Source of the DNA: an uncultured Planctomycetales bacterium
Lineage (GTDB): Bacteria > Omnitrophota > Gorgyraeia > Gygaellales > Profunditerraquicolaceae
Length of the DNA: 64,000 nt
NCBI GenBank assembly: GCA_964545575.1
Contig: CAZJFL010000002.1
Location: forward strand, 59,564-123,563
Reading direction: 5' to 3'
Position 1 is the first letter of the stretch; each line of letters begins with the position of its first letter. The notes beneath the pieces were generated by a model. It made no database searches, had not been told where the DNA came from, and saw only the letters and a list, made by a program, of their open reading frames with translations. Both the position numbers and the translations under genes were made by a program. Positions 1,095 to 25,742 of this stretch are shown piece by piece.

Positions 1095-1166
1095 GTGTCA
1101 AGGTATCAGGTGTCAAGGTATCAGACGTTACTTACTTTGACACTTTGATACTTGACACTTTGATAC
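1095..1166. repeat. Family A palindromic element built from GTGTCAAGGTATCA / TGATACnnTGACAC units
   Basis: GTGTCAAGGTATCAGGTGTCAAGGTATCAG-loop-TTTGACACTTTGATACTTGACACTTTGATAC, upstream of polX. Confidence 0.8.
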
Positions 1167-1173
1167 CCTTCAA

Positions 1174-2100
1174 TTATACAGCCAAATTATAACTTGCTTC
1201 GATGGTCTTAATTAAATTAGTCAGCAGCGAGTTGACGGGTGTGGCGATGCCGAGTTCCTGCCCCTGCCGCACGATCACCCCGTTAATAAAATCTATTTCC
1301 GTGCGCTTCTTTCTCAACACATCCTGCAGCATTGAGGATATGTTTGTTGCCGTGGCTTCACAGACCGCTTCTACTTTTGCCAACGGGTCATCGTAGATTA
1401 ATTTGATGCGTTTGCGCTTGGCAATTTTGGTTGCTTCGCTGACCGCTTCCCTTAAAATCTTACCTGTTCCCTCGTATTCAATAATTTTTCCGTTAGGCAG
1501 GCGCGTTATCGCAGTAAGCGCGTTTATCCCGGCATTAATAATCAGTTTTGACCAGAGTAAGCCTTTGATATCGCGCGAGATCTTGGTTTCCATGTCGGAT
1601 TGGTTAAAGATTTCGCGGATAGAGCGTAGCTTGGGCGTGATTTTACCGTCCAGCCTTCCGATAATGGTTTCGCCGCGCCCTGCATGCCGCACGCTTCCCA
1701 CATCCGCCAGCGTCGCCCCCTGGTTAGTTACGCCTGCGATAACTTTTTCCGGGCCTACCATTTCGCTGATAATTTCTAAATTACCGATACCGTTTTGCAG
1801 TGTAAGCACGGTCGTGGCTTCGCCGATTAAGGGCTTGGCATGTTTTATCGCCTCTTTTGTATCGTAAGACTTAACGCTGATGATGACTAAGTCCGCTATG
1901 CCTATATTCCCGGGGTCAACGGTTATTTTAACATCGGCCTGCCAGCTGCCGGATAGGCCTTCGGCAATTATACCCTGTTTGCTGATTCTCTCGGCTCTTT
2001 CCCGGCGTTTATCTAAAAGCCATAATTCCTGTTTTGACCGGTGTAAAAGGGCGGCGGATAAACAACCCATTGCCCCGGGGCCCACGATAACTATTTTCAT
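1174..2100 (-). CDS. panE: 2-dehydropantoate 2-reductase (ketopantoate reductase)
   Basis: 308 aa with N-terminal MKIVIVGPGAMG Rossmann motif and the overall KPR/ApbA family pattern. Confidence 0.72.
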   Translation of the reverse strand: MKIVIVGPGAMGCLSAALLHRSKQELWLLDKRRERAERISKQGIIAEGLSGSWQADVKITVDPGNIGIADLVIISVKSYDTKEAIKHAKPLIGEATTVLTLQNGIGNLEIISEMVGPEKVIAGVTNQGATLADVGSVRHAGRGETIIGRLDGKITPKLRSIREIFNQSDMETKISRDIKGLLWSKLIINAGINALTAITRLPNGKIIEYEGTGKILREAVSEATKIAKRKRIKLIYDDPLAKVEAVCEATATNISSMLQDVLRKKRTEIDFINGVIVRQGQELGIATPVNSLLTNLIKTIEASYNLAV

Positions 2101-2114
2101 AAGTTTCCTGCCTC

Positions 2115-2882
2115 CTATTTCGCCAGAGCCAGAGCGCCATCCATCTTACTGAGCACCTTCTCGGATTTAAGGTCTTTTTCCAGATGGAACTTAAGGAACG
2201 AGTTTAAGACCAGCTCCAGCTCTTTTTTAATCTGGGGGTTCATCCCCAGCGTCAGCGCATCCTTAAAATTATTTTTTTCGATATGCAGTATCGACGCTAC
2301 CGTTCCCCTAAAAATTGAGCGGGCGGCAGCGTCTTTAGCGTAGCACTTGGCGCAAAGTAACCCTCCCTGCTTTAGGCTAAACTTAGATTCACCCAGTATT
2401 TTTCCGGCGCAGGAAACACAGGAATCAAGATGCGGCTTAAATCCCGAAAGTGCCAAGGCCTTGATTTTAAAAATGCTGATGACTTTATCGGGAGAGTAAC
2501 TTCTCTCTAGCTCATTAAGGCTATCGAGGGCAAGATTAAAAATTTCTTCATTCTTATCTTCCAGGGGCATGAGAATGTCTAGCATTTCGGCAATCACCAT
2601 CGCTGCCCCTATCTTGGGGATAGTCTGCCTGATGGCGCCGAAGTTATTGATGCTGTCGCATTGGCTGACCAGGTGCAGGGAAGAATTCCTTTTTTTATAA
2701 AAGATGATTTCGTTATGCGAAAAATGCTCTAATGTGCTGGCGAATTTAGCGGGATCCTCTTTTATCCCTTTGAGCAGGCCGCTTATCCTGCCGAAATCGC
2801 GGGTGTAGAAATTGGCGATTACCGAGGTCTCGCGAAAGTCGTATTTATTCAGGACTATGGCTTCGGTTTTATGGATAGGCAT
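2115..2882 (-). CDS. recO: DNA repair protein RecO
   Basis: 255 aa with RecO N-terminal OB-fold pattern (EAIVLNKYDFRETSVIANFYTRDFGRISGLLKG) and a C-terminal CxxC...CxxC zinc motif. Sits next to ybeY. Confidence 0.8.
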   Translation of the reverse strand: MPIHKTEAIVLNKYDFRETSVIANFYTRDFGRISGLLKGIKEDPAKFASTLEHFSHNEIIFYKKRNSSLHLVSQCDSINNFGAIRQTIPKIGAAMVIAEMLDILMPLEDKNEEIFNLALDSLNELERSYSPDKVISIFKIKALALSGFKPHLDSCVSCAGKILGESKFSLKQGGLLCAKCYAKDAAARSIFRGTVASILHIEKNNFKDALTLGMNPQIKKELELVLNSFLKFHLEKDLKSEKVLSKMDGALALAK

Positions 2883-3283
2883 ATATTTTGCGCCCTTTTC
2901 TGCATCAAATCTCTTTTTTTTTGGGTATTGTCATCGTATCCTAACAAATGCAGGGCGCCGTGGACTACATATAGATAAAGTTCGCCTGCCGGGGTAGTTT
3001 TAAAAATCCTGGCATTGCGCAGGGCGGCGTCAACAGATACGACTATGTCGCCCACTAATTCTTTCTTGGTATCGACAATATGAAAAGAGATTACGTCTGT
3101 AGCAGAGTATTCCCCGAGGTACAAAAGGTTTAGCTTTCGTATCTCTTCGTCGCTGGTAAAGCAGACAGTTATTTCACCCAGTTTTTTTATTCCTTCGGAC
3201 GAGAAGGCCTTAAGAACTGCTTTCTTTATCCTTTTCGGATAGATGGGGATTTTCTTTTGGAGATTTATTATGATTACTTTCAC
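2855..3283 (-). CDS. ybeY: rRNA maturation endoribonuclease YbeY
   Basis: 142 aa carrying the HGALHLLGYDD metal-binding motif. Part of the conserved phoH-7TM_HD-ybeY operon context. Confidence 0.85.
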   Translation of the reverse strand: MKVIIINLQKKIPIYPKRIKKAVLKAFSSEGIKKLGEITVCFTSDEEIRKLNLLYLGEYSATDVISFHIVDTKKELVGDIVVSVDAALRNARIFKTTPAGELYLYVVHGALHLLGYDDNTQKKRDLMQKRAQNICLSIKPKP

Positions 3284-4595
3284 TTTTTATATCTTTTTCA
3301 GGATAGGCGATCCGGCTGTGGTAGATGCCGTTTAAGATACGGATAAATACCGCCGCTATAGTCTCAAGGTTCTTCAAGGTTAAATCGCATTCGTCAAGCT
3401 GGCCGTCGATAAACTTGTTATTGATTATTTTATGCACCAGCTCTTCTATTTTTACCGGCGCAGGTTCTCTAAGCGTGCGGCATGCCGCCTCCACCGAATC
3501 CGCCAGTAATACGACTGCGCTTTCTTTGCTGTCCGGTTTAGGCCCCGGGTATCTAAACCCCTCTTCTTTTATCTCCTGATCGTCCTCTAAGCTTTCCAGG
3601 GCCCGGCGGTAAAAATAATAAACCAGGCTCTTACCGTGATGCTGGGCGATAAAATCTATAATGCGCTGGTTAAGTTTATATTTGCGCGCTAATTCCATTC
3701 CATCTTTTACGTGGTTCATGATCACCATCTTGCTCATCGTCGGGACGAGCCTTTCGTGTTTGCTTTGTTCTTCGTTCTGGTTTTCGCTGAAATACTCTGC
3801 CTTTTCGACTTTTCCTATATCGTGGTAATATGCCCCGATCCGGGCCAGCAGCGCATTAGCGCCTACCGCCCTGCAGGCAGCCTCCGATAAATTACCCACT
3901 ACCAGGCTATGGTAATAGGTCCCCGGCGCCTCCAGGATCATGCGTTGCAGCAGCGGATGGTTAAAATCTGCCAGCTCCAGGAGGCTGATGTTGGTGGTGG
4001 TTTTAAAGAGCATTTCAAATATCGGCAATGTCCCCAGCACAATAAAGCTTGAGACAACACCGTTTAACGTAAGCATGAGATATCGCAAAGGGTAATAAAC
4101 TTTAAGTCTATCCATCAGGAATAAAGTTATTGCCTCCAGGATCCCGACAATCAGCCCCGCCCTTATGATATCCAGGCGCCTGCGCGCGTTCAGCACGAGC
4201 AGGCTTGCGGCAATCCCGCCTACCAGGAAGGAAACTAGCAGATAAAAATTACCGCCTCTGATCATCGCCACAGAAACGGCAGCGGCCAGAGAAAGCGCAA
4301 GCGATATTTCTAGCTCTCCGAAAAGTATAGTCGCCAGCATCGGTATCAGGGAAAAAAGCAGGTAGACGGTAGACATTCCCTGCCCGATAATAAAATAGCT
4401 GCTGACAAAAACAATCACAAAAAGAAAAATGAGGTTTAAGAGGCTGTAATTTAACTTACTTAATTTAAGGTATATAAATAGGCAGAGCAATACCAGCGGG
4501 ATAATTAAACTGACCCCCAGAGCCCCGGCGGTTAAAAAAACCGATGCCGCCCCGATTATAAGTTTAATCTTATTTATCATGCGTAACCTTCTCAT
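3210..4595 (-). CDS. 7TM receptor with intracellular HD hydrolase domain (7TM-HD, YqfF-like)
   Basis: 461 aa with multiple N-terminal transmembrane helices and a C-terminal HD domain (YYHDIGK motif). Located between phoH and ybeY as in many bacteria. Confidence 0.75.
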   Translation of the reverse strand: MRRLRMINKIKLIIGAASVFLTAGALGVSLIIPLVLLCLFIYLKLSKLNYSLLNLIFLFVIVFVSSYFIIGQGMSTVYLLFSLIPMLATILFGELEISLALSLAAAVSVAMIRGGNFYLLVSFLVGGIAASLLVLNARRRLDIIRAGLIVGILEAITLFLMDRLKVYYPLRYLMLTLNGVVSSFIVLGTLPIFEMLFKTTTNISLLELADFNHPLLQRMILEAPGTYYHSLVVGNLSEAACRAVGANALLARIGAYYHDIGKVEKAEYFSENQNEEQSKHERLVPTMSKMVIMNHVKDGMELARKYKLNQRIIDFIAQHHGKSLVYYFYRRALESLEDDQEIKEEGFRYPGPKPDSKESAVVLLADSVEAACRTLREPAPVKIEELVHKIINNKFIDGQLDECDLTLKNLETIAAVFIRILNGIYHSRIAYPEKDIKSESNHNKSPKENPHLSEKDKESSS

Positions 4596-5532
4596 AGGCC
4601 TCGATTATCCTCTGCACTAAGGCATGCCTCACTACGTCAAAGCCGGTAAAATAGACGAACTTTATTCCCTCGATGTTTTTTAGGATATCCTGAGCCTGAA
4701 GCAGGCCGATAGGTTTTCCGTCCGGCAAATCGCTCTGGGTAATATCTCCGGTGATCACGGCTTTGGAATCAAACCCCAGGCGCGTGAGGAACATCTTCAT
4801 CTGCTCTGCCGTGCAGTTCTGGGCCTCATCGAGCACGATAAAAGCATCGTTTAAGGTCCTTCCGCGCATATAGGCCAGCGGCGCCACTTCAATAATCCCG
4901 GTTTCCAGGTATTTTTCTATGCGTTCGGCATCCACCATATCGTAAAGAGCGTCGTATAGCGGCCGCAAATAAGGGGATATTTTCTCCTGCATATCCCCGG
5001 GCAGGAATCCCAAAGATTCGCCGGCTTCTACTGCCGGGCGGGTAAGGATAATCCTGCGGACTTCCTGCTTTTTTAAAGCTTCTACTGCGGAGGCCATGGC
5101 CAGATACGTCTTGCCGGTGCCCGCAGGCCCGATACCAAACACAATATCGTGTTTTTTGATCGCCTCTACGTACTCAGACTGGCCTTTAGTTTTCGGGCCG
5201 ATGCCTTTGCCCCGGGAAGCCTGCTGCGCTACAATCATTTCTGGTAATCTATCCGGCGCTTCCAGAGCCTTCTTCTGTTTGAAACTCTTTACCAGGTAAT
5301 GCAGGTCTTCTTTACCTATTGCGGTCCGGTTTGTGCGGACGGCATTTAAGAGGTATTCCAGTAAACTAGAGCACTTACGGACATTGCTGCTTAAGCCGTT
5401 GATTTTAAGGAGTTCTCCGCGCAAGTTTATTTTGACCCGGAACTCCTTTTCTATCAGTTTGAGGTTATGGTCGTGGGAGCCGAAAAGCGCTTGCGCTTCT
5501 TCTTTGGTCTCTACCCTGATCACTTCTTCCAT
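4570..5532 (-). CDS. phoH: PhoH-like ATPase (YbeZ)
   Basis: 320 aa with Walker A motif GPAGTGKTYLA and PhoH family conservation. Followed by the 7TM-HD and ybeY genes. Confidence 0.9.
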   Translation of the reverse strand: MEEVIRVETKEEAQALFGSHDHNLKLIEKEFRVKINLRGELLKINGLSSNVRKCSSLLEYLLNAVRTNRTAIGKEDLHYLVKSFKQKKALEAPDRLPEMIVAQQASRGKGIGPKTKGQSEYVEAIKKHDIVFGIGPAGTGKTYLAMASAVEALKKQEVRRIILTRPAVEAGESLGFLPGDMQEKISPYLRPLYDALYDMVDAERIEKYLETGIIEVAPLAYMRGRTLNDAFIVLDEAQNCTAEQMKMFLTRLGFDSKAVITGDITQSDLPDGKPIGLLQAQDILKNIEGIKFVYFTGFDVVRHALVQRIIEAYEKVTHDK

Positions 5533-5537
5533 GCAGT

Positions 5538-6083
5538 TTATTTTAAGTTTTGCGCGGGTTCGCTAATCTTGGTTAAAGGCTCGACGGGGATGTTGATTAT
5601 CTGGCCTGGACGAAGCTGATCCGGCCCCTTTAAGCTGTCTTTATTAGCCCGGTAGATCTTATTCCATTTCTTGGTGGTCCCGTAGAACTTTTTGGAGATC
5701 TTCTGGAGGGTATCGCCTTTGGCGACCTTATATTTCTCCACATTTACTACGGCTTTGGTAGCGACAGTAGTTATATGCTCTGTAGCATAGCTTTCCTCGA
5801 ATACAGGTTCTTCTCTTTTAAGGAGCGGTTCGGCAGCGGTAGTTTTTTTAACTTTTGCGGCAGAACCCATCTCTATTTCCAGCACATGGACTGTACGCGT
5901 TGATTTCCTTTGCGGCTCTTCGTACTGCGCCGGCTGGCCCATCAGATATCCCCGGTTGCCGCCGCTGATTAGGTCTTGGTCGACTCTGTCTTTAGTAAGA
6001 GAATAGTTCCTGACAGCGCAACCGGCCATGGCCAAAGATAAAATTGCAATCCCTATTAACAAAATGCCGTTTAATTTTTTCAT
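5538..6083 (-). CDS. LysM domain lipoprotein
   Basis: Signal peptide with lipobox ([10 protein letters not shown]). C-terminal LysM motif ([18 protein letters not shown]...[10 protein letters not shown]). Confidence 0.6.
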
Positions 6084-7477
6084 TCCTTTCTCCTTTCTTT
6101 TTTGACCGCTATGTTTAATTCTTTTAGCTGTTTTTCGTCCACATCCGCAGGCGCATCGGTTAAGGGACAGTATGCCTTCTGGGTCTTAGGAAAAGTAATT
6201 ACTTCCCGGATACTATCAACCCCCGCTAGTATTGCCAGCAGCCTATCCAGCCCGAAAGCAATGCCGCCGTGAGGGGGTGCGCCGAACTTAAAAGCCTCCA
6301 GGAGAAACCCGAATCTTTTATAGGCCTCATCCTTATTGATGCCGATAATTCTGAATACCTTCTCTTGCAACTGCTGGTTATGTATTCTAATCGATCCGGA
6401 GCCGATCTCATTGCCGTTTAAGACCAAATCATAAGAGCGCGATTTTACCTTATCCGGGCTTTTTTCTAATATATCCAGGTCCTCTTTGCGCGGCGAGGTA
6501 AAGGGATGGTGTTCGCTTTCCCAGCGTTTTTCTTCCGCGTTGTATTTAAAGAGCGGAAAATCCGTGACCCAGGCAAAAGCAAACTCGCTGTTTAATTCTT
6601 TTCTTAGGTCCGGCTTATCGCTGTTATATTTGCTTTGGGCTGCAGTGTAACTCAGGCGCGGGAAAGGAATTTTTAAATCGGCGCCTTTTAATTCTTTCAA
6701 GACCAGCTGCATCAACTTTTCTGATAAGGCAAAGATGTCTTCTTCGTCGATAAAAGACATCTCTAAATCAAGCTGGGTGAATTCCGGCTGGCGGTCGGCA
6801 CGCAGGTCTTCATCACGGAAGCACTTGGCGATCTGGTAATACCTTTCTATGCCTGAGACCATCAGGATCTGTTTAAATAGCTGCGGCGACTGCGGCAGGG
6901 CATAAAACTGCCCCGGATTAAGCCGCGAAGGAACCAGATAGTCGCGGGCGCCTTCCGGCGTAGATTTAGTCAGGATCGGGGTTTCGGATTCAATAAAGCC
7001 CTGCCGGCTGAGGTAATTGCGGATTATTTTATAAAGGTTGTCTCTCAGGATAAAGTTATTAAAGACTTTTTTTCTTCTTAAATCAAGATAGCGGTATTTA
7101 AGGCGCATCTCTTCGGTGACGTCCAGATTATCTTCGATTTCAAAAGGCGGGGTAATGCTCGGGTTTAAGATTTCCATGTCGAAGGCCTTTACCTCCACTT
7201 CCCCGGTGGGCAATTTGGGGTTTAGCGTGCCGGCCGGGCGGCTCTCTACTTTCCCGGAAACTTTGATCACAAATTCATTTCTTAGCTCCTGGGCTAATTT
7301 ATAAGCCTCTCCCGATTCTTTGGGAATAAAAACCACCTGCGTCAGGCCGTCGCGGTCGCGGATGTCAATAAAAACGAGTTTTCCGTGGTCGCGGCGGCTG
7401 GCTACCCATCCGCAGAGAGTCACTTCTTTACCGATATCGCCTGCCTTAAGTTCACCGCAGGTGTGGGTTCTTAGCAT
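6080..7477 (-). CDS. aspS: Aspartate--tRNA ligase, bacterial-type but lacking the GAD insertion domain
   Basis: N-terminal OB anticodon-binding domain, class II motif 2 [23 protein letters not shown] and motif 3 [10 protein letters not shown]. Only about 20 residues separate SDKPDLR from WVTDFPLF, where bacterial AspRS normally carries a ~130 aa GAD domain. Confidence 0.85.
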
Positions 7478-8712
7478 TTTAGTTCTTTAATTAAGTCTTC
7501 GGCTTTTAGCTCTCTTTGTGCCCCCGATTCCATATCCTTTAAGGTTACTACGCCTTTCTTAAGTTCATCCTCTCCTATAATCAGAACGTATCTGGCGCCT
7601 AAATCATTGGCCTGGCGCAGCGCACCTTTGAGGGATTTACCGGTATAATCGGTATCCGCAGGGATTCCAGCCTTACGCAGCAGATTTAATAATTTTAGGC
7701 CCTCTGCCTTGGCTTCTTCCCCCAAAGATATCAGGTAAACTAACTTGGGGCTTGGAGCTTGGAGCTTGGAGTCAGAAACCAAGAACAGCCTTTCTATGCC
7801 AAAGGCAAAACCCATGGCGCCGGTATCCGGGCCGCCTAATTCCTTAACCAGATTATCATATCTGCCGCCTGCGCCCAGGGCATCCTGAGCGCCTAATCTA
7901 TCGTGTATAATTTCAAAGACGGTGCTGGTATAATAATCCAGGCCGCGCACCAGGCGGGGATTTACGGCATACTTAATTCCTAAAGCATCCAGGCCTTTTT
8001 TCACCCCTTTGAAATGCCCGGCGCAGTCGGCGCAGAGATGTGCGTCGCCAAGCTTCAATGTTTTAATCACCTCAATACAGGCTTCATTTTTACAGTCCAG
8101 GACCCTTAAGATATTGGTTTCAAGCCTCCTGCGACAATCAGCGCAGAGCTTTGCGGTTTTATCTTTCAGGGATTTACCTAACACAGCTACTAACTTTGCT
8201 TTATCTTTGGTGCAGCCCAAGCTGTTAATTTCTATTTTATAATCGGTTATGGAAAAAGCTGCCAGCAGAGCGTCGGCCAGCGCAATCACCTCTGTATCCA
8301 CAGCGGCATCGTGGCCGCCAATGACTTCTACGCCTAAATGATGGAACTGGCGTAATCTTCCTTTTTGCGGCCGCTCCATGCGGAACATCGGCCCCAGGTA
8401 ATAGAGTTTTAAGAAGCCTTTAGTTTTATCCAGGCTATTTTCAAGATAGGCGCGTACCACCGAAGCCGTGCCTTCGGGCCGCAGGGCATATGTGTCGCGC
8501 TCCTTTTTAATCAGAAACATTTGTTTGCGCACGATTTCGGTGGATTCGCCGAGGGAACGGTTGAATAATGCCGCCTCCTCGATTAAAGGCGGGCGGATCT
8601 CCAGGTAATTATAAACAGAGAGTATGCTGCGGGCCGTATTCTCTATGGCCTGCCACCAGGATACTTCTTCGGGCAGTATATCTTTTGTTCCGGTTATTCT
8701 TTTAATCATCAA
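7471..8712 (-). CDS. hisS: Histidine--tRNA ligase
   Basis: 413 aa with N-terminal GTKDILPEE motif, class II core and C-terminal anticodon-binding domain. Contains an in-frame heptamer x3 repeat. Confidence 0.9.
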
Positions 8713-8758
8713 TATTTAGGCAGCGTCGATAAGATTAGCAGATAAGACGGGGTAAGAT

Positions 8759-9031
8759 TTATTTAACCTTTTTCTTCATATCCAGGCCTGGCTTAAAGAC
8801 CACTACTTTTCGAGGCGGGACAGGGACTACTTCGCCGGTACGAGGGTTTCTGCCGGTGCGGCTCTTCCTCTGTTTGATCTTAAAAACACCGAAGTTGCGC
8901 AGCTCTATTTTTTCCCCTCTTATCAGCGCCTCAACAATGCAATCAAAGGTTTTCTGCACGACGCGCTTTACGTCGGTCTGTTTTAAGTTCGTAGCATCGG
9001 AAACCTTCAGGATAATATCTTTCTTGGTCAT
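8759..9031 (-). CDS. hup: HU/IHF family DNA-binding protein
   Basis: The track ORF was trimmed to the internal Met (MTKKDIILKVSD...), which has an AAGGAGGG Shine-Dalgarno 5 nt upstream. Contains the HU signature GFGxFxxxxRxxRxGRNPxTGE. The longer track ORF start lies inside a repeat element. Confidence 0.85.
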   Translation of the reverse strand: MTKKDIILKVSDATNLKQTDVKRVVQKTFDCIVEALIRGEKIELRNFGVFKIKQRKSRTGRNPRTGEVVPVPPRKVVVFKPGLDMKKKVK

Positions 9032-9085
9032 CTTGACCCTCCTTAAGCGAGCAGGGGTTAACCCCGCCTTTGGCAGGGTAAGTTC

Positions 9086-9141
9086 GCGCATATAAGTTAT
9101 GTCGATTAACTAAGTAATAGCTATCTCCATAACTTATGCGC
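9086..9141. repeat. Family C hairpin element (GCGC/GGCC-ATATAAGTTATG ... CATAACTTAT-GCGC/GGCC)
   Basis: GCGCATATAAGTTATG-26 nt loop-CATAACTTATGCGC, between hup and dnaE. Confidence 0.8.
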
Positions 9142-9189
9142 TTACTTAACTATAATAACAGCAAAAACTTACGATGTCAAGAGGAAACT

Positions 9190-12627: not shown

Positions 12628-12632
12628 TTTGG

Positions 12633-12696
12633 CTTATCGCTTATCGCTTATCGCTTATCGTAGAACGATGTGCGATTTGCGATATGCGCTATGCGA
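12633..12696. repeat. Family B palindromic element, intergenic copy between dnaE and guaA
   Basis: GGCTTATCGCTTATCGCTTATCGCTTATCG-TAGAA-CGATGTGCGATTTGCGATATGCGCTATGCG. Confidence 0.85.
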
Positions 12697-12698
12697 GT

Positions 12699-15529: not shown

Positions 15530-15670
15530 GCACATAACTTACGGAAGCACTGGAAGTGCGACGTAAGTTATAAGTGCGAACTTACCCCGCACCGTAAAGG
15601 TGCGGGGTAAGTTCGGCCAAATAAGTTATGTCGCTGATATATTTAATATACAGCTCCATAACTTATGGCC
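15530..15670. repeat. Composite of three consecutive hairpins that include a Family C element
   Basis: Hairpin 1: GCACATAACTTACG...CGTAAGTTATAAGTGC. Hairpin 2: a perfect 16 bp hairpin, GAACTTACCCCGCACC-GTAAA-GGTGCGGGGTAAGTTC. Hairpin 3: GGCCAAATAAGTTATG-loop-CATAACTTATGGCC. All in the 347 bp guaB-groEL spacer. Confidence 0.8.
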
Positions 15671-15683
15671 TCACTTAAACAAA

Positions 15684-15716: not shown

Positions 15717-15744
15717 CTATGAACCCTGAACTCTAAAACCCTGT

Positions 15745-17382
15745 TTAATACATTCCTCCCATGCCCCCCATCCCGCCTCCCGGAGGCATCGCCGGCATTC
15801 TGTCTTCCTTTTCCGGTTTATCCGCGATGACTGTTTCGGTGGTAAGCAGAAGCGCTGCGATACTGGCAGCGTTCTGTAGAGCAGAGCGGGTGACCTTAGT
15901 GGGGTCAATTACGCCCGCTTCGATCATGTCCACATAGGCATCCTGATTGACATCGTAACCTACGTTAGTTTTTTCCTGCTTGATACGCTGCGCAACTACC
16001 GAACCCTCTAAGCCGGCGTTTTCCACAATCTGCCTTAAGGGCTCTTCAATCGCCCTTTTAACGATAATCACGCCTATTTTTTCGTCGCCTTCGAGCTTAA
16101 GCTTATCCAGGGCAGCCAGGGTCCTTACCAGCGCTACTCCGCCGCCGGGAACAATGCCTTCCTGGGAAGCTGCGCGGGTAGCATGCAACGCATCTTCTAC
16201 TCTGGCTTTCTTTTCTTTCATTTCTGTTTCGGTAGCCGCCCCGACATTGATTACCGCTACTCCGCCGGCAAGCTTTGCCAGCCTTTCCTGCAGTTTTTCT
16301 TTGTCGTAATCGGAATCGGTATCGTCTATCTGCTTCTTGATCTGGGCGATCCGGGCATTAATCGCCTGGCTCTTGCCTGCGCCTTCCACGATGGTCGTAT
16401 TTTCCTTATCCACTTTGACCCTTTTTGCGCGGCCCAAATCTTCGATATCGATATTTTCTAACTTTAAGCCCAAATCTTCGGTGATCGCCTTGCCGCTGGT
16501 AAGAACAGCAATATCATCAAGCATGGCTTTGCGTCTATCGCCGTAACCGGGAGCTTTTACTGCGCAGGCAACAAAGGTGCCGCGGAGTTTATTTACTACT
16601 AACGTCGCTAACGCTTCTCCCTCGACCTCTTCGGCAACAATCAAAAGCGACTTTCCGGTGCGGGCGATCTTCTCTAGTAACGGCAGGATATCTTTAATCG
16701 AAGATATTTTTTTCTCGTAAATCAGAATATAGGGTTCCTCTAAAAGAACCTCCATCCTTTCGGCGTCGGTGACAAAATAAGGGGATAGATACCCCTGGTC
16801 AAATTGCATCCCCTCTACGACATCCAGGGTAGTAGCAGTTGATTTTGCTTCTTCTACGGTGATTACGCCGTCCTTGCCCACCTTATCCATCGCTTCGGCG
16901 ATTAACTCTCCGATAGCGGTATCGGAATTTGCCGCGATAGAGGCGACCTGGGCTATCTCTTTTTTGTCTTTGATCGGGGTGGAAAGCTTGCTTAACTCTT
17001 CAATGACCTTAGCTACTGCTTTTTCGATCCCGCGCTTTAAAGCCATGGGATTGGCTCCGGCAGTGACGTTTTTCAAGCCTTCGCGGTAAATCGCCTCAGC
17101 CAGAATCGTGGCGGTGGTTGTTCCGTCGCCGGCGATATCAGAGGTTTTTTCCGCTACTTCTTTGACCATCTGCGCCCCCATATTCTCAAAAGGGTCCTCC
17201 AGGTCGATTTCTTTGGCTACGGTCACTCCGTCTTTAGTAATGGTTGGCGAACCGAACTTCTTATCTATTACTACGTTACGCCCCTTGGGCCCGAGAGTCA
17301 CCTTTACTGCTGCGGCGAGCTGCTCTACTCCGCTTAAGATCTTGCGGCGCGCCTCATCACTGTATAATAGTTGCTTTGCCAT
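15745..17382 (-). CDS. groL: Chaperonin GroEL
   Basis: 545 aa, canonical GroEL sequence with the C-terminal GGM repeat tail. Confidence 0.97.
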
Positions 17383-17408
17383 TCTTTCGCCTCCTTATTA
17401 GCTATGTT

Positions 17409-17477
17409 TGTGTCAAAGTGTCAGAGTATCAGGTATCAAAGTGCCATGACACCTTGACACTTTGATACTTTGACACC
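17409..17477. repeat. Family A palindromic element between groES and groEL
   Basis: GTGTCAAAGTGTCAGAGTATCAGGTATCAAAGTG...CACCTTGACACTTTGATACTTTGACAC. Confidence 0.8.
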
Positions 17478-17481
17478 GTTG

Positions 17482-17772
17482 TCACTTAATTATCGCCAAG
17501 ATATCTTCTTCGCGCATAATCAGTAATTCTTCGCCATCTTTGGTAGTGATTTCGTTCCCGGAATATTTTCCGTATAATACCTTATCCCCGACTTTTACTT
17601 CCGGAGCCTGGGTTGTTCCGTTATCCAAAACTTTTCCTTTTCCTACTGCGACAACTTTGCCCTCCTGCGGTTTTTCCTTGGCTGTATCCGGCAGCACTAT
17701 CCCGCCCTTGGTTTTTGCTTCTGCTTCCAAAGGCTTGACGACTACGCGGTCTCCTAATGGTTTGATCTCCAT
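17482..17772 (-). CDS. groS: Co-chaperonin GroES
   Basis: 96 aa, canonical GroES ([11 protein letters not shown]...). Confidence 0.95.
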
Positions 17773-17800
17773 AACTCACCCCCTCTAATAAATAGATTAA

Positions 17801-17827
17801 TTAGCACTCTTGATTTCAGAGTGCCAA
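17801..17827 (-). promoter_or_regulatory. CIRCE inverted repeat (HrcA operator) in the groES leader
   Basis: TTAGCACTC-N9-GAGTGCCAA matches the CIRCE consensus TTAGCACTC-N9-GAGTGCTAA. Lies between the predicted -10 box and the groES start. Confidence 0.85.
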
Positions 17828-17854
17828 TTATAAAGCAAAAAAAAATCTTGTCAA
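17827..17854 (-). promoter_or_regulatory. Sigma70-like promoter upstream of groES
   Basis: On the minus strand: TTGACA, 16 nt spacer, TATAAT, directly upstream of CIRCE. Confidence 0.6.
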
Positions 17855-17892
17855 GAGTTTTTTATAAAAAATTAGAGGCGGGTGCTAAAACC

Positions 17893-18393
17893 TTACCAGC
17901 TTAAAAGACTGACTTTAAAGCCCTGATCAGGTTTCTTGACCTGATACGCCGGTTCTATTAATGGCTTATCATACGGAGGCAGAGTAAAGGTCGCCATATC
18001 CACCACTCCGGATGCACCGCGCACTAAGCCTGTCACTATCCCTTCCCCTAATCCTACGGTAGCCCCTACTAAAGGATTGTGCTTTTGCGATACCGCGTTG
18101 ATCTGCTTGGGTATCTCTGCCCAGGAGGTAGCAGCATTTAGCGCGCCCAGGCCTATTTTATTTGCCGGAGAATTAGACGCCATATCAGCAGTAGCTATGG
18201 TTTTTGTATTGACTGATGCTAAAAAGACGGTCGGGAGCATCTGTGTGTTTTTATCCGGCTGCAGGAGTCCTAGATGGTAACTACTTGGAGCAATTATGGT
18301 TGAGGGTGAGATTACCGGGTCTTGAGCCGGCTGGGAATAAAGATTTACTGCCAGGGATACTATGACGCAGGTAAAGAATAAAACCTTTTTCAT
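17893..18393 (-). CDS. Hypothetical secreted protein
   Basis: 166 aa with an N-terminal signal peptide and no recognisable domain. GGAGGT RBS and a stable 5' hairpin upstream. Confidence 0.4.
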   Translation of the reverse strand: MKKVLFFTCVIVSLAVNLYSQPAQDPVISPSTIIAPSSYHLGLLQPDKNTQMLPTVFLASVNTKTIATADMASNSPANKIGLGALNAATSWAEIPKQINAVSQKHNPLVGATVGLGEGIVTGLVRGASGVVDMATFTLPPYDKPLIEPAYQVKKPDQGFKVSLLSW

Positions 18394-18541
18394 CTGGCTA
18401 CCTCCGCTTTGCCTTTATCAGTTAGGTAAACCCAGCTCCTGCGTGCAGGGGCTGGGTAAATTGCTAAATTGTCAAAATATCACTTGCCATTAAAAATATA
18501 ACATATACCTATATTATTGTCAAAGCGGGAAGGCGTATTTT

Positions 18542-19291
18542 TTAGGCAGCAGTGTTCCTGTTGCAGATTAAAGCTAAACCCTTGAGGGTCAAATCCGGGT
18601 CTATTTTATCGATTTTACGGCAGTAATTAACCATTAAGCCGATATTTCCGCCGGTGCCGATAACCAAGGCCTTTTGTCCGATTTTCTTTTTTATCCGGAT
18701 GACTAAATCGTCGGTAAGGGCGGCAAACCCGTAGACTATGCCGCTAAGCATGCTGGCGCGGGTATCTCTTCCGATAAACTCTTTTGGCTGGGCTAATTTT
18801 ATTTTCGGCAAAAGCGCGGTCTTCTCACTCAACGCCTCCAAAGAAATACCCAAACCCGGTACAATCATGCCCCCGAGGTATTCTTTATGCCTGGAGATGA
18901 CATCAAAGGTAACGGCTGTTCCGAAATCCACCACGATTGCAGGAACCCCATAAAGTGTCGCGGCAACATAAGCATTAACCAGCCTGTCCTGCCCTACTTG
19001 TGCGGGCCTGCGGTAAAGATTCTTAATCGGAGGCAAGATGTGCTTACCTATGATTAGAGGATTTTTGCCGAGCAATTTCTTCAGGTCCCCTGTTAAAACG
19101 GCGGTGCTTTGGGGGACTACGCTGGAGATAACAATTTCTTGGATTGACTTCCTTCTGCCCCCCAAGAGCTTGTTCAGGCAGGGATAGTATTTTTTCTTTC
19201 TGGTGGGTATGGCATATTTTTTAAGCAGGCGCCTGCCGCTAAATAATCCGAGGTTAATATTAGTATTACCTATATCTATGGCTAGAAGCAT
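18542..19291 (-). CDS. coaX: Type III pantothenate kinase
   Basis: Start trimmed to the internal Met (MLLAIDIGNTNINLGLF, ASKHA fold). The longer ORF start overlaps a repeat element. Confidence 0.8.
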   Translation of the reverse strand: MLLAIDIGNTNINLGLFSGRRLLKKYAIPTRKKKYYPCLNKLLGGRRKSIQEIVISSVVPQSTAVLTGDLKKLLGKNPLIIGKHILPPIKNLYRRPAQVGQDRLVNAYVAATLYGVPAIVVDFGTAVTFDVISRHKEYLGGMIVPGLGISLEALSEKTALLPKIKLAQPKEFIGRDTRASMLSGIVYGFAALTDDLVIRIKKKIGQKALVIGTGGNIGLMVNYCRKIDKIDPDLTLKGLALICNRNTAA

Positions 19292-19304
19292 AAGATTAAG
19301 GAAT

Positions 19305-19340
19305 GATAGTATCAAGGTATCAGGTGTCAAAGTATCATAG
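19305..19340. repeat. Family A element, partial or single-arm copy upstream of coaX
   Basis: TGATAGTATCAAGGTATCAGGTGTCAAAGTATCATA. Confidence 0.6.
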
Positions 19341-19345
19341 CCACA

Positions 19346-20425
19346 TTACAATACTTTTTTTAATACCTTGACAAATCTTTCGTTCTCTTTTTTGGTTCCG
19401 ACAGTAACGCGGATGAAGTTTTTCAGGCCGTACTGCTGCATCTCCCGCACGATGACGCCGTACCTTAGCAGCGCATTAAATACCAATAAGCCGTCTTTTT
19501 CCACATCCAGCAGGATAAAATTAGCCACAGAGGGAACATAGGTTATACCCACTTTATTCAGCGCGTCATAAATATAATTTTTACCCTCCAAAACGGCAAC
19601 TTTCGTCTTACGCAAGAATACCCGATCATCTAAAGCTGCTAATGCCGCTATTTGGGCTAAGGAATTAACGTTAAAGGGCTGTCTGGAACTTTCCATATAG
19701 GAAGTCAGCTCCGCATTACCCAGGGCATAACCTATCCTTAAGCCCGCCAGGCCATAGGCCTTAGAAAATGTTTTTAGCACCAGGATATTTATTTTCTTAA
19801 GATAATTCAGGGTACTGGGGTAGTCATCCACGTCAATAAAGGTATCATAAGCCTCGTCCATCACCAGGATCAGGTTTTCCGGTAGCCCAGAAATAAAATC
19901 TTCCAGCTCGTATTTAGTCACATAGGTGCCGGTGGGGTTATTGGGATTGGCGATAAAGATAACTTTGGTCTTTTTATCTATCCTCTTTTTAATCGCCTCT
20001 AAATCGTATTTAAAATATTTTAAAGGCACGCTGATCAGGGCGCGGTTGTTGACCTTAGAGATTATCTGGTATTCGAGGAACGTCGTCTCGGCAGTGATAA
20101 TGTTCTCATCCTCCGCCACAAAGGTCTTGATAATTATATCGATCAGCTCATCCGAACCGTTGCCTAAAACGACATTTGCCGCCCCGAGATTATGATATCT
20201 GGCAAGTTTTTTGCGTAAATAGAAACCGCTGCTGTCGGGATAGCGGTTGATTTGCCCAAGGTTCTTTTTTATCGCCTCCACGGCTTTCGGGGACGGCCCC
20301 AGAGGGTTCTCGTTAGAGGCCAGCTTGATCACATCCTTTAAGCCGAGCTCTCTTTTGGTCTCCTCTATAGGTTTACCCGCTATATAGGGGGTAAGGTTCA
20401 GTATATTTTTTCTTACCAAACTCAT
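19346..20425 (-). CDS. hisC: Histidinol-phosphate aminotransferase
   Basis: 359 aa class II aminotransferase with LASNENPLGPSP motif and a PLP lysine region. Confidence 0.88.
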   Translation of the reverse strand: MSLVRKNILNLTPYIAGKPIEETKRELGLKDVIKLASNENPLGPSPKAVEAIKKNLGQINRYPDSSGFYLRKKLARYHNLGAANVVLGNGSDELIDIIIKTFVAEDENIITAETTFLEYQIISKVNNRALISVPLKYFKYDLEAIKKRIDKKTKVIFIANPNNPTGTYVTKYELEDFISGLPENLILVMDEAYDTFIDVDDYPSTLNYLKKINILVLKTFSKAYGLAGLRIGYALGNAELTSYMESSRQPFNVNSLAQIAALAALDDRVFLRKTKVAVLEGKNYIYDALNKVGITYVPSVANFILLDVEKDGLLVFNALLRYGVIVREMQQYGLKNFIRVTVGTKKENERFVKVLKKVL

Positions 20426-20443
20426 CTTCTCTCCTTAAAGTAA

Positions 20444-21505
20444 TTATTCTCCTACCGGATAGGAACCCAGTATTTTAATAAACTTGCAGTGATTCTCCAA
20501 TTCCAGAAGCGCTCTTTTAACCCGCGGCTCATCGCGGTGCCCGGCTAAATCCAGGAAAAAGTAATAATCCCAGGCTTTTTTCTTGGAAGGCCGCGATTCT
20601 ATCTTGGTCAGGTTTATTTTATGCCTTTTAAAAGGCATAAGCATCTCATGCAAAGCCCCGACCTTATCTTTAATCGAGAACACGAGCGAAGTTTTATCCT
20701 GGCCGGTGGCCGGCACGTCTGTTTTGCCGATGACTAAAAAACGGGTGACGTTATGCGGGGAATCTTCTATATCCCGGGCAATAACCTTCAATTTATAAAC
20801 TTTAGCTGCCAGCAAAGAGGCGATACAGGCACTGTTTTTTTCTCTGGCGGCAATCTGGGCTGCGCGCGTAGTGCTGGATACTTCGCTCTGCTCTGCGGCG
20901 GGAAGGTTTTCCTGCAACCAGATGCGGCATTGCCCGAATACGTTGGGGTTAGAGTAAATGCGCCTGATTCTATCTTTGGCGCATTTTCCCAGAAGGTTAT
21001 GCGACACCTCCAGAATAACCTGGGCGCAGATTTTTAAGTCGGAATCTACCAGCATATCCAGAGTATGGCTTACCGCACCTTCAATGCTGTTTTCAATAGG
21101 CACGACGCCGTAATCGGCAGTACCTCTTTCTACCTCTAGAAATACATCGGCTATGCTGTCACAGGCAAAATAATCCACCTGAGAGCCGAATCTTTTTAAA
21201 GCCGCTAGATTTGAGAAGCTCGCCGGCGGGCCCATATAAGCTATTCTTAGCGGCCCTCCCGCAGATAGTCCGCAGGACATAATCTCGCGGTAGACTGCCT
21301 CAAGGGCAGAGCCGCTAAGGGGGCCTTTATTAGCCAGTTTTATTTTTGTCAAAATTTCCCTTTCGCGTTCGGGAGAATATGCTGTTTTTCCCGTCCGGCG
21401 CTTTAGGCGAGAAATATCCGTAGCAAGTTTTGCGCGCAGGTTTAAAAAACGCACTATCTCATAATCGATTGCGTCGATTTTTTTACGCAGGTTTTGTAGC
21501 TGCAT
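20444..21505 (-). CDS. pheA: Bifunctional chorismate mutase / prephenate dehydratase
   Basis: N-terminal CM_2 domain, central PDT domain, C-terminal ACT domain. Confidence 0.88.
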   Translation of the reverse strand: MQLQNLRKKIDAIDYEIVRFLNLRAKLATDISRLKRRTGKTAYSPEREREILTKIKLANKGPLSGSALEAVYREIMSCGLSAGGPLRIAYMGPPASFSNLAALKRFGSQVDYFACDSIADVFLEVERGTADYGVVPIENSIEGAVSHTLDMLVDSDLKICAQVILEVSHNLLGKCAKDRIRRIYSNPNVFGQCRIWLQENLPAAEQSEVSSTTRAAQIAAREKNSACIASLLAAKVYKLKVIARDIEDSPHNVTRFLVIGKTDVPATGQDKTSLVFSIKDKVGALHEMLMPFKRHKINLTKIESRPSKKKAWDYYFFLDLAGHRDEPRVKRALLELENHCKFIKILGSYPVGE

Positions 21506-22070
21506 TTTGCATCTCCTCTTTTGGGGGCGTCTCTTCTTTTTTTTCTTTCGGCATGGTTAAGCCGCCGATTTTAGGCAGGTCCTCCAGGGACTTTAATCCG
21601 AAATATTCCAGGAATTGCCGGGTTGTCCCGTATACCTTAGGTCTACCCGGAGCTTTTTTTCTCCCGGCGACGCGGATAATATCTTTCTCCAAAAGGTTCT
21701 GCATTAAACCGTCCACATTTACGTTCCTGATAGATTCGATTTCCAGTTTAGTCACCGGTTGCTTATAGGCGATGATGGCCAGGGTCTCTAAGGCCGGCCG
21801 GGATAATCTTTCTACGCGGCGCTGTTTGTATAATTTTTTTAAGAAAGGTGCCAGGGCTGCCGCGGTGCTCATCCGGAAGCCCTCCGCTACCTCCGTAATC
21901 CTGATCCCGCGGTTTGTAGTTTCGCATTCTGACTGCATTTCCGACAGCACGCGGCGCACCTCGCCCGTATCGAGGCTCTCTAAGACATTCTTTATCTGTT
22001 CCAGGGTCAGCGGTTTTTCGCTGGCAAATAAAAGCGCTTCGATTACCGCCTTAATATTATCGTAGCTCAT
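21483..22070 (-). CDS. scpB: Segregation and condensation protein B
   Basis: 195 aa with ScpB winged-helix repeats (EALLFASEKPLTLEQI). Confidence 0.85.
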   Translation of the reverse strand: MSYDNIKAVIEALLFASEKPLTLEQIKNVLESLDTGEVRRVLSEMQSECETTNRGIRITEVAEGFRMSTAAALAPFLKKLYKQRRVERLSRPALETLAIIAYKQPVTKLEIESIRNVNVDGLMQNLLEKDIIRVAGRKKAPGRPKVYGTTRQFLEYFGLKSLEDLPKIGGLTMPKEKKEETPPKEEMQNAATKPA

Positions 22071-22697
22071 CTACTTTTGCTTCCTCTGTTTATACACTTC
22101 GTTTAATAGCTCTTCGGTAGTTTTTATATCGCCGGCTCTCTGGAGCGCTTTTTCGATCATCTGCAGGGCTTCCGATTTTTTATACTCTAGCTGCATCAAG
22201 ACTGCCATCGCCTCATCTTTGATACTCTTTGATTTTAATTCATGCTCTCCTGCCCGGCCATCTTTTATCAGGCCGAATTTTCCCACTTTATTCTGTAACT
22301 TAGCAATGATTTCCCTGGCCCGCTGCGGCCCGATGCCCGGAAGAGACCTTAAGAACTCTACATCCGCTGCGTCTATCGCCCGCACGATTAAAGAGATGGG
22401 TTTATTCAGGGCTTTTAAAGCCGCGCGCGGCCCGATTCCGGAGACGGTAATAAAGACCTCAAAGAACTCTTTTTCTATTTCGTTTAAAAACCCCACTAAT
22501 ACCGGCGTGCTCTTGGAGGGCTCGACCTGTAAATAATGGTAAGTGATCAGGCTGATTTTACCTTCGCTGTTTATATTCTCATCGATGCGCGGCAGGAGCG
22601 TTGCCGGAAGAAAGACCTGATAAGATATCCCGCCTAGATCAAGAATGAGGTAATTTGCGCTCTTTTGAGTTACTTTGCCCAAGATGCGTGCGATCAT
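22071..22697 (-). CDS. ruvA: Holliday junction branch migration protein RuvA
   Basis: 208 aa with RuvA domains I-III. Sits upstream of ruvC and yebC. Confidence 0.9.
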   Translation of the reverse strand: MIARILGKVTQKSANYLILDLGGISYQVFLPATLLPRIDENINSEGKISLITYHYLQVEPSKSTPVLVGFLNEIEKEFFEVFITVSGIGPRAALKALNKPISLIVRAIDAADVEFLRSLPGIGPQRAREIIAKLQNKVGKFGLIKDGRAGEHELKSKSIKDEAMAVLMQLEYKKSEALQMIEKALQRAGDIKTTEELLNEVYKQRKQK

Positions 22698-23176
22698 GAT
22701 TTATATTTGACTGTGTGGCTGTGGGCGATGGCTAATGCCAGCGCATCAGTCACGTCGGTATATTTGGGCAGCTGCTCTAGGCGGAGCATACTTACCACTA
22801 CCCTTTGTACTTGATATTTAGAAGCCAGGCCCTTTCCTACCACCGCTTTTTTTACTCTTGTCGCCGCATATTCTACCAGCGGTAATTTTTCCAAGGCACA
22901 GGCGAGGCAAATGACTCCGCGGGCCTGGCCTAAAACATACGCCGTGGTCGGATGACGGTAGTGCGCGTATAATTTCTCTAAAACCAATACGTCGGGCTTG
23001 GTGTCTCTGATTAATTGCCTGACCAAGCGGTGTATCTTGCCGAGACGCGCGGAAACTTCTTGCTTGGGGGAAGTGGCAATGATACCCGCTTCTATCAAAG
23101 AGAGCTTATTTCTGGTAAAATCAATTACGCCGTAGCCGGTAACAGAAAGCGCCGGATCTATCCCTAAAATAATCAT
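22694..23176 (-). CDS. ruvC: Crossover junction endodeoxyribonuclease RuvC
   Basis: 160 aa, MIILGIDPALSVTGYGV RNase H-like fold. Confidence 0.92.
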   Translation of the reverse strand: MIILGIDPALSVTGYGVIDFTRNKLSLIEAGIIATSPKQEVSARLGKIHRLVRQLIRDTKPDVLVLEKLYAHYRHPTTAYVLGQARGVICLACALEKLPLVEYAATRVKKAVVGKGLASKYQVQRVVVSMLRLEQLPKYTDVTDALALAIAHSHTVKYKS

Positions 23177-23931
23177 TATTCTCCGGAAGCCGCCTGCTCT
23201 AAGATTTCGTCGGGTATATCGAAGTTAGCGTAGACGCTCTGGACATCATCATGCTCTTCCAGGGCTTCCACTAAAGCTAATACCTGTTTTGCGTCTCCCC
23301 CGGCGACCTTAATCGTAGAGGAGGGAATCATGGTGACTTCCGCAATCTGAAATTTTATTCCTTTTTGTTCCAATACCTGCTTTACTTTTTCTAAGTCCGC
23401 AGGGGCAGTGGTAATCTCATAATTTTTATCATCGTATTTCATATCCTCAGCCCCCGCCTCCAGTACGATATCCATCAATTCTTCTTCTTTAGCTTGGGTC
23501 CTATCGATCAGGATGTAACCTTTTTTGGTAAACATCCAGCTTACTGAGCCGGCGCCGGCCATATTTCCGTTCTTTTTAGACAGGATATTACGTAACTCCG
23601 CGGTGGTGCGGTTCTTATTATCCGTAAGGGCTTCGACCATAATCGCCACCCCTCCCGGTGCGTAGGCTTCATAGGTGACGGTCTCATAAATTACGCCCGG
23701 AAGCTCTCCTGTGCCGCGCTTAATTGCCATCTTAACGTTATCCGAAGGCATGTTTGCTTCTTTGGCCTTGGCCATAATCGCGCGAAGCTTGGAATTATTA
23801 TCGGGATTACCGCCGCCTTCGCGGGCGATAACGGTGATTTCCTTGATCAGCTTGGTATAAGTAGCTCCTTTTTTGGCATCCGCCAAATTTTTCTTGCCTT
23901 TATTCGTTTTCCATTTTGAATGACCAGACAT
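23176..23931 (-). CDS. yebC: YebC/PmpR family transcriptional regulator
   Basis: 251 aa, MSGHSKWKTNKGKKNLADAKKG signature. Confidence 0.92.
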   Translation of the reverse strand: MSGHSKWKTNKGKKNLADAKKGATYTKLIKEITVIAREGGGNPDNNSKLRAIMAKAKEANMPSDNVKMAIKRGTGELPGVIYETVTYEAYAPGGVAIMVEALTDNKNRTTAELRNILSKKNGNMAGAGSVSWMFTKKGYILIDRTQAKEEELMDIVLEAGAEDMKYDDKNYEITTAPADLEKVKQVLEQKGIKFQIAEVTMIPSSTIKVAGGDAKQVLALVEALEEHDDVQSVYANFDIPDEILEQAASGE

Positions 23932-23959
23932 TTTCTCCCTCCTTAAAAATTATTACTTA

Positions 23960-24026
23960 ATATCAAGGTATCAATGTGTCAATGTATCAAAAAACTTTGA
24001 TACTTTGATACATGACACTCTGATAC
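23960..24026. repeat. Family A palindromic element between yebC and rnpB
   Basis: ATATCAAGGTATCAATGTGTCAATGTATCAAAAAACTTTGATACTTTGATACATGACACTCTGATAC. Confidence 0.8.
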
Positions 24027-25736: not shown

Positions 25737-25742
25737 TGTATT

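Follow-up and report, generated by a model that had tools for sequence, protein, structure and literature searches.

STRR-like palindromic repeats of tandem GTRTCA units in short intergenic spacers of an Omnitrophota genome

The 64,000-nucleotide (nt) stretch of genomic DNA analysed here (the window, to whose positions all coordinates refer) carries four dispersed intergenic elements, designated family A, that are built from tandem copies of a short unit. The unit is the hexamer GTRTCA followed by 1–2 nt, usually purines, with a period of 7–8 nt, and its reverse complement reads YYTGAYAC. We consider family A, with a probability of about 0.55, to be a lineage-specific family in a class of small palindromic repeats, that is, selfish or neutral insertions at the DNA level whose effects on RNA would be incidental. 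An earlier inspection of the letters alone (the original prediction) had proposed a family of four dispersed palindromic elements of GTRTCA/TGAYAC units in intergenic DNA, and all four sites are present where it had placed them:

1095..1166, no strand assigned: family A copy 1, composed of four GTRTCA units and, after a loop of 14 nt, four TGAYAC units
17409..17485, no strand assigned: family A copy 2, between groES and groEL, a hairpin of 4+4 units with an additional degenerate unit
19305..19340, no strand assigned: family A copy 3, one-armed, with four units at 19309-19337
23960..24026, no strand assigned: family A copy 4, a 4+4-unit hairpin in the rnpB-yebC spacer

The two-unit pattern GTRTCANNGTRTCA matched the window 15 times, and all 15 matches fell within these four sites, where 0.00 were expected from shuffled sequences; the three-unit pattern matched 6 times against an expectation of 0. 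Genes and RNA genes leave only 5.6% of the window uncovered, and all four sites fall within this fraction (P ~1e-5), in line with the intergenic enrichment that had been anticipated. Copies 1, 2 and 4 each consist of four units, a loop of 6–14 nt and four complementary units, and not of two or three units per inverted repeat as first proposed. The minus strands of these three copies fold strongly, with energies of −27.4 (copy 1), −38.5 (copy 2) and −27.6 kcal/mol (copy 4) and z-scores of −5.05, −7.12 and −6.54, respectively, which none of 200 shuffles equalled. Copy 3, which had been recognised as a half copy, is a direct array of four units whose partner arm is absent, and it does not fold (z = +0.87). 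Copies 1 and 3 share an exact 19-mer, TTGACACCTGATACCTTGA (1098-1116 and 19312-19330), which spans units and the spacers between them. The loops differ completely among the copies, and only the units are common to all.

All genes of the window are on the minus strand, including rnpB (24036-24429). Copy 1 is located between the panE stop codon (1174-1176) and the polX start (1084), both genes being on the minus strand. In copy 2, the outermost, degenerate fifth unit, GTGACAAC, overlaps the groES TGA stop codon (17482-17484), and the groEL Shine-Dalgarno sequence lies outside the stem. Copy 3 is located between an aminotransferase stop codon (19346-19348) and the coaX ATG (19291), and copy 4 lies 9 nt past the rnpB 3' end (24036) and 28 nt ahead of the yebC ATG (23931). 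The gene names polX, groES/groEL, coaX and yebC given in the original prediction were confirmed by Pfam, which identified PanE and PolX on the two sides of copy 1, with copy 2 flanked by GroES and GroEL, copy 3 by an aminotransferase and CoaX, and copy 4 followed by YebC. Between the upstream gene or RNA and the element lie 3–9 nt, and 10–28 nt separate the element from the next start codon. The siting immediately upstream of gene starts that had been emphasised is therefore one half of the arrangement, and the elements are equally sited just downstream of the preceding gene end.

Identical GroEL and an identical 131-nt spacer region containing copy 2 were found in four other assemblies from three sources (ENA, Logan and JGI); therefore, the copy 2 element is real and stable in the population. 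The sequence of copy 1 is likewise identical in the locus L246. Repeat number, whose variation between close genomes marks phase-variable simple repeats, did not vary among the few strains sampled. No further family A copies were found in a flanking extension of ~16 kb on both sides of the window, which brings the total to four copies in ~80 kb of the host genome.

The best named matches of the window valyl-tRNA synthetase (ValRS) and GroEL all belong to Candidatus Omnitrophota/Omnitrophica, and the related locus L243 (GroEL 97% and ValRS 76% identical) shares its gene order with the window from rnhA to dnaE. Comparison with these relatives revealed that (i) the groES-groEL spacer, correctly described at the outset as enlarged, to 100 nt, measures 99 nt in the window vs 14, 19 and 17 nt in L243, L244 and L245, respectively; (ii) the spacer between the aminotransferase gene and coaX measures 54 nt in the window vs 9 nt in L243; (iii) the stretch between the rnpB 3' end and yebC in L243 does not have the 67-nt hairpin of copy 4; and (iv) none of 80 related loci obtained by a PanE scan of JGI metagenomes had family A in the panE-polX spacer, which in those relatives where polX follows panE ranges from a 4-nt overlap to 247 nt and contains various other palindromes. 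The empty sites in relatives contain nothing unit-like. Because the orthologous sites are empty at all four positions, all four copies are, by this comparison, lineage-specific insertions later than the split from the closest sampled relatives. The guaA-dnaE spacer contains tandem-unit hairpins with differing units in the window, L243 and L245, and none in L244, where it is 9 nt long. A positional homology with a match in Desantisbacteria (L168) was considered and rejected, since the gene order there is different, with the array upstream of guaA.

The loop of copy 1 includes a 12-mer, CGTTACTTACTT (1126-1137), that occurs inverted in the orthologous spacer of L248 (3447-3458), the closest PanE relative (83% identical), where it is flanked by a different palindrome, GGGACTGTCCCC. 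This 12-mer otherwise had one chance occurrence in ~1.4 Mb. The arrangement suggests an inversion of the loop and a turnover of the arms.

To this we add a comparison set of 432 kb from 83 related Omnitrophota loci, picked regardless of repeats. It contained 18 tandem-unit hairpins of ~17 unit families and 159 tandem arrays of heptamers or octamers, and not one three-unit family A array. A further unit family of the window, TAAACYC/GGTTTAG, was also found in L321. Each related genome holds its own set of units. Four copies in ~80 kb vs none in 432 kb, together with the 19-mer shared by copies 1 and 3, form the pattern that would be expected of multiplication within the genome.

Family A was also examined for signs of function. 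An intrinsic terminator scan called none of the four copies and found a canonical terminator after groEL. No Rfam family was matched at gathering or permissive thresholds, the sub-threshold matches being to a plant microRNA hairpin alone (22 bits vs a gathering threshold of 100). Compensatory or mirror-image pairing of the arms was absent, as the real arms did not pair better than arms whose units had been permuted (mean z +0.25, n=22; 6 of the 22 hairpins below zero). No consistent bias towards a more stable sense strand was found in the window or across the 22 hairpins, and the sense strand of copy 1 is weaker than the antisense strand by ~10 kcal/mol. Because the arms pair no better than permuted-unit arms and neither strand is consistently the more stable, nothing points to selection on the RNA stem. 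The absence of the copies from the closest relatives, the lack of compensatory pairing and the lack of sense bias argue against a conserved regulatory RNA. The suggestion in the original prediction that the elements could affect transcription or mRNA stability thus fared unevenly: a conserved regulatory RNA is disfavoured, and a specific prediction, a promoter for coaX, comes from the half copy only:

19303..19330, minus strand: sigma-70-like promoter in copy 3, TTGACA-16-TATCAT, agreeing with the consensus at 11 of 12 positions

The −35 TTGACA of this sequence lies inside a unit, and its TATCAT ends 11 nt ahead of the coaX ATG. In quality it matches three strong promoter-like sites with sequence conservation in relatives, located upstream of groES, orf166 and guaB. 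Copy 3 is plausibly a candidate new promoter for coaX. A promoter reading of copies 1, 2 and 4 was rejected, as these have no usable −10 sequence at the right distance. The site upstream of groES (17798-17854, minus strand) is a perfect sigma-70 promoter, TTGACA-16-TATAAT, after which comes a CIRCE-like inverted repeat, TTGGCACTC-N9-GAGTGCTAA, that is conserved in three relatives; the repeat suggests control by HrcA.

A scan of the GTDB species representatives with the four-unit pattern returned at least 120 stretches, for which ~0.1 chance matches were estimated. Among the matches listed, those from high-G+C taxa are plain perfect tandem octamers, and hairpins like family A occur in Omnitrophota, Nitrospinota, Nitrospirota/Thermodesulfovibrionales, Desantisbacteria, Lentisphaerota/Victivallales, Anaerolineae and others. 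Strict, exact-unit criteria gave 18 hairpins among these listed matches, 17 of them intergenic and mostly between co-directional genes. When one mismatch per unit was allowed and at least 3 units per arm were required, 24 hairpins were counted (three of them in the window), 13 of which have 4+4 units; the GTRTCA arm is 5' of the loop in 22 of these 24 and the order is reversed in 2. Four hairpins on viral contigs share the polarity of the majority, so that the purine-rich arm is the 5' arm in 26 of 28 combined. This polarity is identical on both strands, as the elements are palindromes. A tally over the window and loci L123-L327 gave a purine-rich 5' arm in 32 of 34 hairpins of the family A type. 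Hairpins with other units have a purine-rich 5' arm in 43 cases and a pyrimidine-rich one in 15, and their modal count is four units per arm. Horizontal transfer and a shared constraint or universal function are candidate reasons for the recurrence of the unit across phyla; an independent origin is plausible too, given the degenerate pattern and the many families per genome.

No family A copy of the window is genic. Elsewhere, family A arrays were found in frame in ProC of a Nitrospirae metagenome-assembled genome (MAG) and in IspD of an Omnitrophica MAG, and a complete family A hairpin was found in frame in the uracil-DNA glycosylase of a Nitrospiraceae MAG, in which the unit is altered where TGA would fall in frame. 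Two other settings of the unit were observed. In L129, L137, L159 and L213 (Bacteroidales MAGs) and L042 (a viral contig), an A+T-rich perfect palindrome, CACTATATATAA...TTATATATAGTG or GGGGGATATATATATATCCCCC, has TGACAC/GTGTCA arrays on both sides, so that the whole is a composite element of larger size. A tRNA-like 3' end (...GGTTCGATTCCGCCCCTCGGCACCA) is directly followed by a family A hairpin in L134 and L238 (Nitrospinota MAGs). The antisense strand of the L134/L238 hairpin folds far better than the sense strand (−41 vs −18 kcal/mol).

Beyond what the original prediction had described, the window contains more unit families with the architecture of family A, including in-frame copies in valS and a copy in rnpB:

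12628..12698, no strand assigned: family B hairpin filling the guaA-dnaE spacer; on the minus strand GCATATC x4, loop, CGATAAG x4
25739..25814, no strand assigned: family B hairpin between tRNA-Val and tRNA-Met
36733..36803, minus strand: family B hairpin in valS, in frame, translated HSAYRISHIVQDDKRLAISDKQ
36946..37011, minus strand: family B hairpin in valS, in frame, translated ISHIAYRISQKANKRLAISDKQ
24215..24300, minus strand: octamer-unit hairpin in rnpB, CGCAAAAA x4 / TTTTGCGT x4, lengthening the helix between ACAGAGA and GUGAAA
58660..58792, no strand assigned: heptamer-unit hairpin, TAAACYC x~9 / GGTTTAG x~9, located in one of the spacers of the acs/cdh gene cluster

Each of the two valS copies adds 22 residues, and in both the unit that would otherwise give an in-frame TAA reads GATTAG, not GATAAG. 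The inserts are absent from Thermus thermophilus ValRS (1GAX); two Omnitrophota ValRS likewise do not have them, and two others do. Across 120 Omnitrophota ValRS, which range from 876 to 990 residues, a small number of hot spots carry variable inserts, many of which resemble translations of palindromes. Certain short peptides turn up at more than one site; examples are (Q)SPxGTVP, present at five, and LPGRQAG, which matches a palindrome at ~26431-26453. These recurring peptides look like translated small palindromes such as GGGACTGTCCCC and CTGCCTGCCGGCAGGCAGG. Residues ~209-216 and ~659-675 of the window valS product belong to the same observation.

The rnpB hairpin is an insertion of the same architecture in RNase P RNA, and the helix that it lengthens is one that we take to be P12. 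In L243, rnpB has a short helix at this position, and a different hairpin is inserted in another of its helices. Vioque is said to have described, in 1997, a cyanobacterial repeat of the short tandemly repeated repetitive (STRR) class in P12 of RNase P RNA.

Several additional repeats were observed in the window. A third family forms hairpins around ATAACTTA(C/T)G / CGTAAGTTAT at 9092-9140, 15540-15670 and 50805-50855; a G+C-rich stem lies nested inside its copy after groEL, and the groEL-guaB spacer measures 347 nt in the window vs 182 nt in L243. Further palindrome families, namely GCCTGCCTGCCGGCAGGCAGGGC, a larger TTTTGCGGGT...ACCCGCAAAA element and pairs of GGGACTGTCCCC, were found at ~26431-26453 and ~62404-62473 of the window and in L248, L253, L286 and other panE loci, and they occupy shared spacers in different relatives. 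Partnerless direct arrays of about four heptamers lie at 7744-7771 (CTTGGAG), 44792-44825 (AGTAACT), 51516-51545 (ACAATTG), 53755-53784 (AGCCCGA) and 50955-50984 (ATCAAAA), and at least those at 7744, 51516 and 53755 are inside called genes by position. The GC skew of the plus strand is uniformly negative across the window (1-64000), with the genes and RNA genes on one strand, and an acetyl-CoA synthase/corrinoid gene cluster (CdhD, RACo, pterin-binding) is located at ~57.8-63.8 kb.

If family A is a set of selfish or neutral DNA insertions, each arm of such a repeat would be a short tandem array, typically of four, of a genome-specific 7–8-nt unit, and the element would be inserted as DNA into very short spacers just past stop codons or RNA 3' ends. 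Copies would persist where the position tolerates an insertion, and the family would spread by copying inside the genome. Because the copies lie between same-strand genes with short spacers, they are probably transcribed within longer RNA, in which copies 1, 2 and 4 could form stems of ~30 bp. Side effects on RNA would then be likely, such as processing, a barrier to exonucleases and, from the one-armed copy, a promoter for coaX. Several observations weigh against this explanation. No target-site duplication was found when filled and empty sites were compared, a test limited by changes in the neighbouring bases; indeed the bases adjoining the hairpins differ between filled and empty sites and leave no clean junction. 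The ~60 open reading frames (ORFs) of the window, that is, of 64 kb of the genome, include no transposase, REP-associated tyrosine transposase (RAYT), reverse transcriptase or integrase. The copies share units and not loops or ends, which fits ill with a cut-or-copy-and-paste movement of a master element, and the inverted loop of copy 1 between other arms suggests that arms can be built or replaced around local sequence. Neutrality offers no account of the strong polarity (26/28) and of the modal four units per arm, and the copies may after all have a function at the RNA level.

Such a function has the most to be said for it among the alternatives, and we still regard it as doubtful. The elements would be selected RNA elements of operon transcripts, with ~30-bp stems that are cut by RNase III or block 3' exonucleases, so that the stabilities of groES and groEL mRNA would be uncoupled and the 3' end of RNase P RNA would be defined. 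The strong folds are consistent with this, as is the placement of all copies between co-directional genes, 3–9 nt past the upstream end and with the downstream Shine-Dalgarno sequence left free, and there are precedents in the Correia/nemis elements, which are cut by RNase III, and in the hupS-hupL STRR hairpins, which were proposed to stabilise transcripts (PMC10969869, PMC2670836). However, the copies are missing from the closest relatives at all four sites, the arms show no mirror-image or compensatory pairing, and the stability of the sense strand does not consistently exceed that of the antisense strand (in copy 1 the sense strand is the weaker by 10 kcal/mol); moreover, a like architecture occurs within coding sequence, and one copy has no second arm. 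That the family instead consists of DNA to which proteins bind is very unlikely in our estimate. The reverse complement of the unit, TTGACAC/TTGATAC, would then supply outward-facing −35 boxes or sites for a repeat-binding protein, and the elements would act as promoter donors. The half copy does yield a promoter with 11 of 12 consensus positions 11 nt before coaX, promoter-like sites of the host match the sigma-70 consensus closely, the dominant polarity (26/28) makes TTGACA face outward on both sides, and transposable elements of the miniature inverted-repeat type (MITEs) with outward promoters are known (PMC10969869). Yet copies 1, 2 and 4 offer no acceptable −10 at the right distance, other unit families of like architecture have no promoter-like sequence, and copies are also found in frame inside genes.

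The remaining alternatives concern how the arrays came to be. They might have arisen locally, by replication slippage and fold-back template switching, with no transfer between loci and with the likeness of their units being convergent. Copies without a common loop or flank, a copy 1 loop made of resident sequence, the existence of one-armed arrays and the abundance of tandem repeats of heptamers and octamers (159 arrays in 432 kb) would all be in keeping with such an origin, which we nevertheless judge distinctly unlikely: nothing unit-like is present at the empty sites of relatives, one unit recurs at separate loci with an exact shared 19-mer, the unit sets are small and genome-specific, and fold-back copying predicts mirror-image arms, which were not seen. 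At least as unlikely, and speculative, is that the hairpins are scars of a DNA-writing process which adds about four genome-specific units to both 3' ends of a chromosomal break, either by a templated (telomerase-like) activity or by a repair polymerase that carries out iterative snap-back synthesis; once the two extended ends were joined, the arrays would be left as an inverted pair. Such a process would account for the polarity, the non-mirrored arms, the one-armed copies and the constant arm length, as well as for the lack of a target duplication, core or transposase and for unit sets that differ between genomes. Addition of units to DNA ends would also be compatible with replaceable arms and a flipped loop. 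Finally, errors of amplification or assembly can create palindromes, and the elements could in principle be chimeric or fold-back contig joins; the chance of this is negligible, given the identical sequence in independent ENA, Logan and JGI assemblies, the interior position of the copies in long contigs, and the related copies that lie in frame in conserved proteins.

Lineage-specific insertion of selfish or neutral repeats, our preferred explanation, would have consequences beyond this window. The compact genomes of Omnitrophota and neighbouring phyla carry such repeats in tiny spacers, in an essential ribozyme and in ValRS, and the class would be a source, active and so far unrecognised, from which these lineages gain insertions and new peptide segments. 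Four units per arm, a fixed polarity, non-mirrored arms and the lack of a transposase signature do not fit the known ways in which palindromic repeats spread; thus, the class offers a tractable entry to the question of how STRR-like repeats arise and disperse. In practical terms, the elements may mislead gene calling and the finders of CRISPRs or repeats, as well as attempts to infer operons and regulation from spacers in MAGs.

A search of full-text literature did not find the family A motif or an account of such repeats in Omnitrophota, and the following comparisons were made with systems described elsewhere. Rickettsia palindromic elements (RPEs) are palindromic repeats that are located in intergenic DNA and also in frame in housekeeping genes, to which they add a peptide without loss of the protein (PMC10969869). 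The repeats described here resemble them in their in-frame insertion into conserved proteins with the frame kept open (valS in the window; ProC, IspD and uracil-DNA glycosylase elsewhere). However, RPEs are ~100-150 bp long, have a conserved consensus and peptide, and belong to Rickettsia, whereas the elements of the window are 65-75 bp long, conserve only the unit, and belong to Omnitrophota. Repetitive extragenic palindromic (REP) sequences are imperfect palindromes of 20-40 nt with a GTAG or CGTC head (PMC3733652). Like REPs and their paired forms (REPINs), family A elements are short extragenic inverted pairs that form long hairpins, belong to genome-specific families and lie just past genes (PMC3116915, PMC3733652). 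By contrast, family A does not have the GTAG/CGTC head, its arms are tandem arrays of units starting with GTRTCA, and copies of the class also occur inside genes; a Y1-transposase domain, as in RAYTs, was found in none of the ~60 ORFs, a result that covers the window only. MITEs such as Correia/nemis are also small non-coding inverted repeats near gene starts, and they can donate promoters and are cut by RNase III (PMC10969869), but family A has no target-site duplication, no conserved internal sequence or ends and no related insertion sequence.

Direct repeats of the heptamer TAACTGA occur in Beggiatoaceae, cyanobacteria and Bacteroidetes in 2-6 copies, with one inverted case in 170 (PMC4679880). 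The likeness to family A lies in short arrays of one heptamer that are nearly all intergenic, by start codons, and distributed patchily across phyla (PMC4679880); unlike these direct arrays, family A consists mainly of inverted pairs. The closest described relatives of the class to which family A belongs are the STRR sequences of filamentous cyanobacteria. The canonical STRR heptamers served as the comparison for the family A unit, GTRTCA plus 1–2 nt, which differs from them in sequence. STRRs are tandem units of ~7 nt that are dispersed in intergenic DNA, and complementary arrays of them make hairpins between co-transcribed genes (PMC2670836). Family A agrees with them in its period of 7–8 nt with four units per arm, its dispersal in intergenic DNA and its hairpins between same-strand genes (z −5 to −7). 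It differs from them in its non-cyanobacterial host phyla, its regular 4+4 build and fixed polarity, the in-frame copies of the class in essential proteins and the insertion evidenced by empty sites. Family A represents STRR-like palindromic repeats in a phylum from which they had not previously been described.

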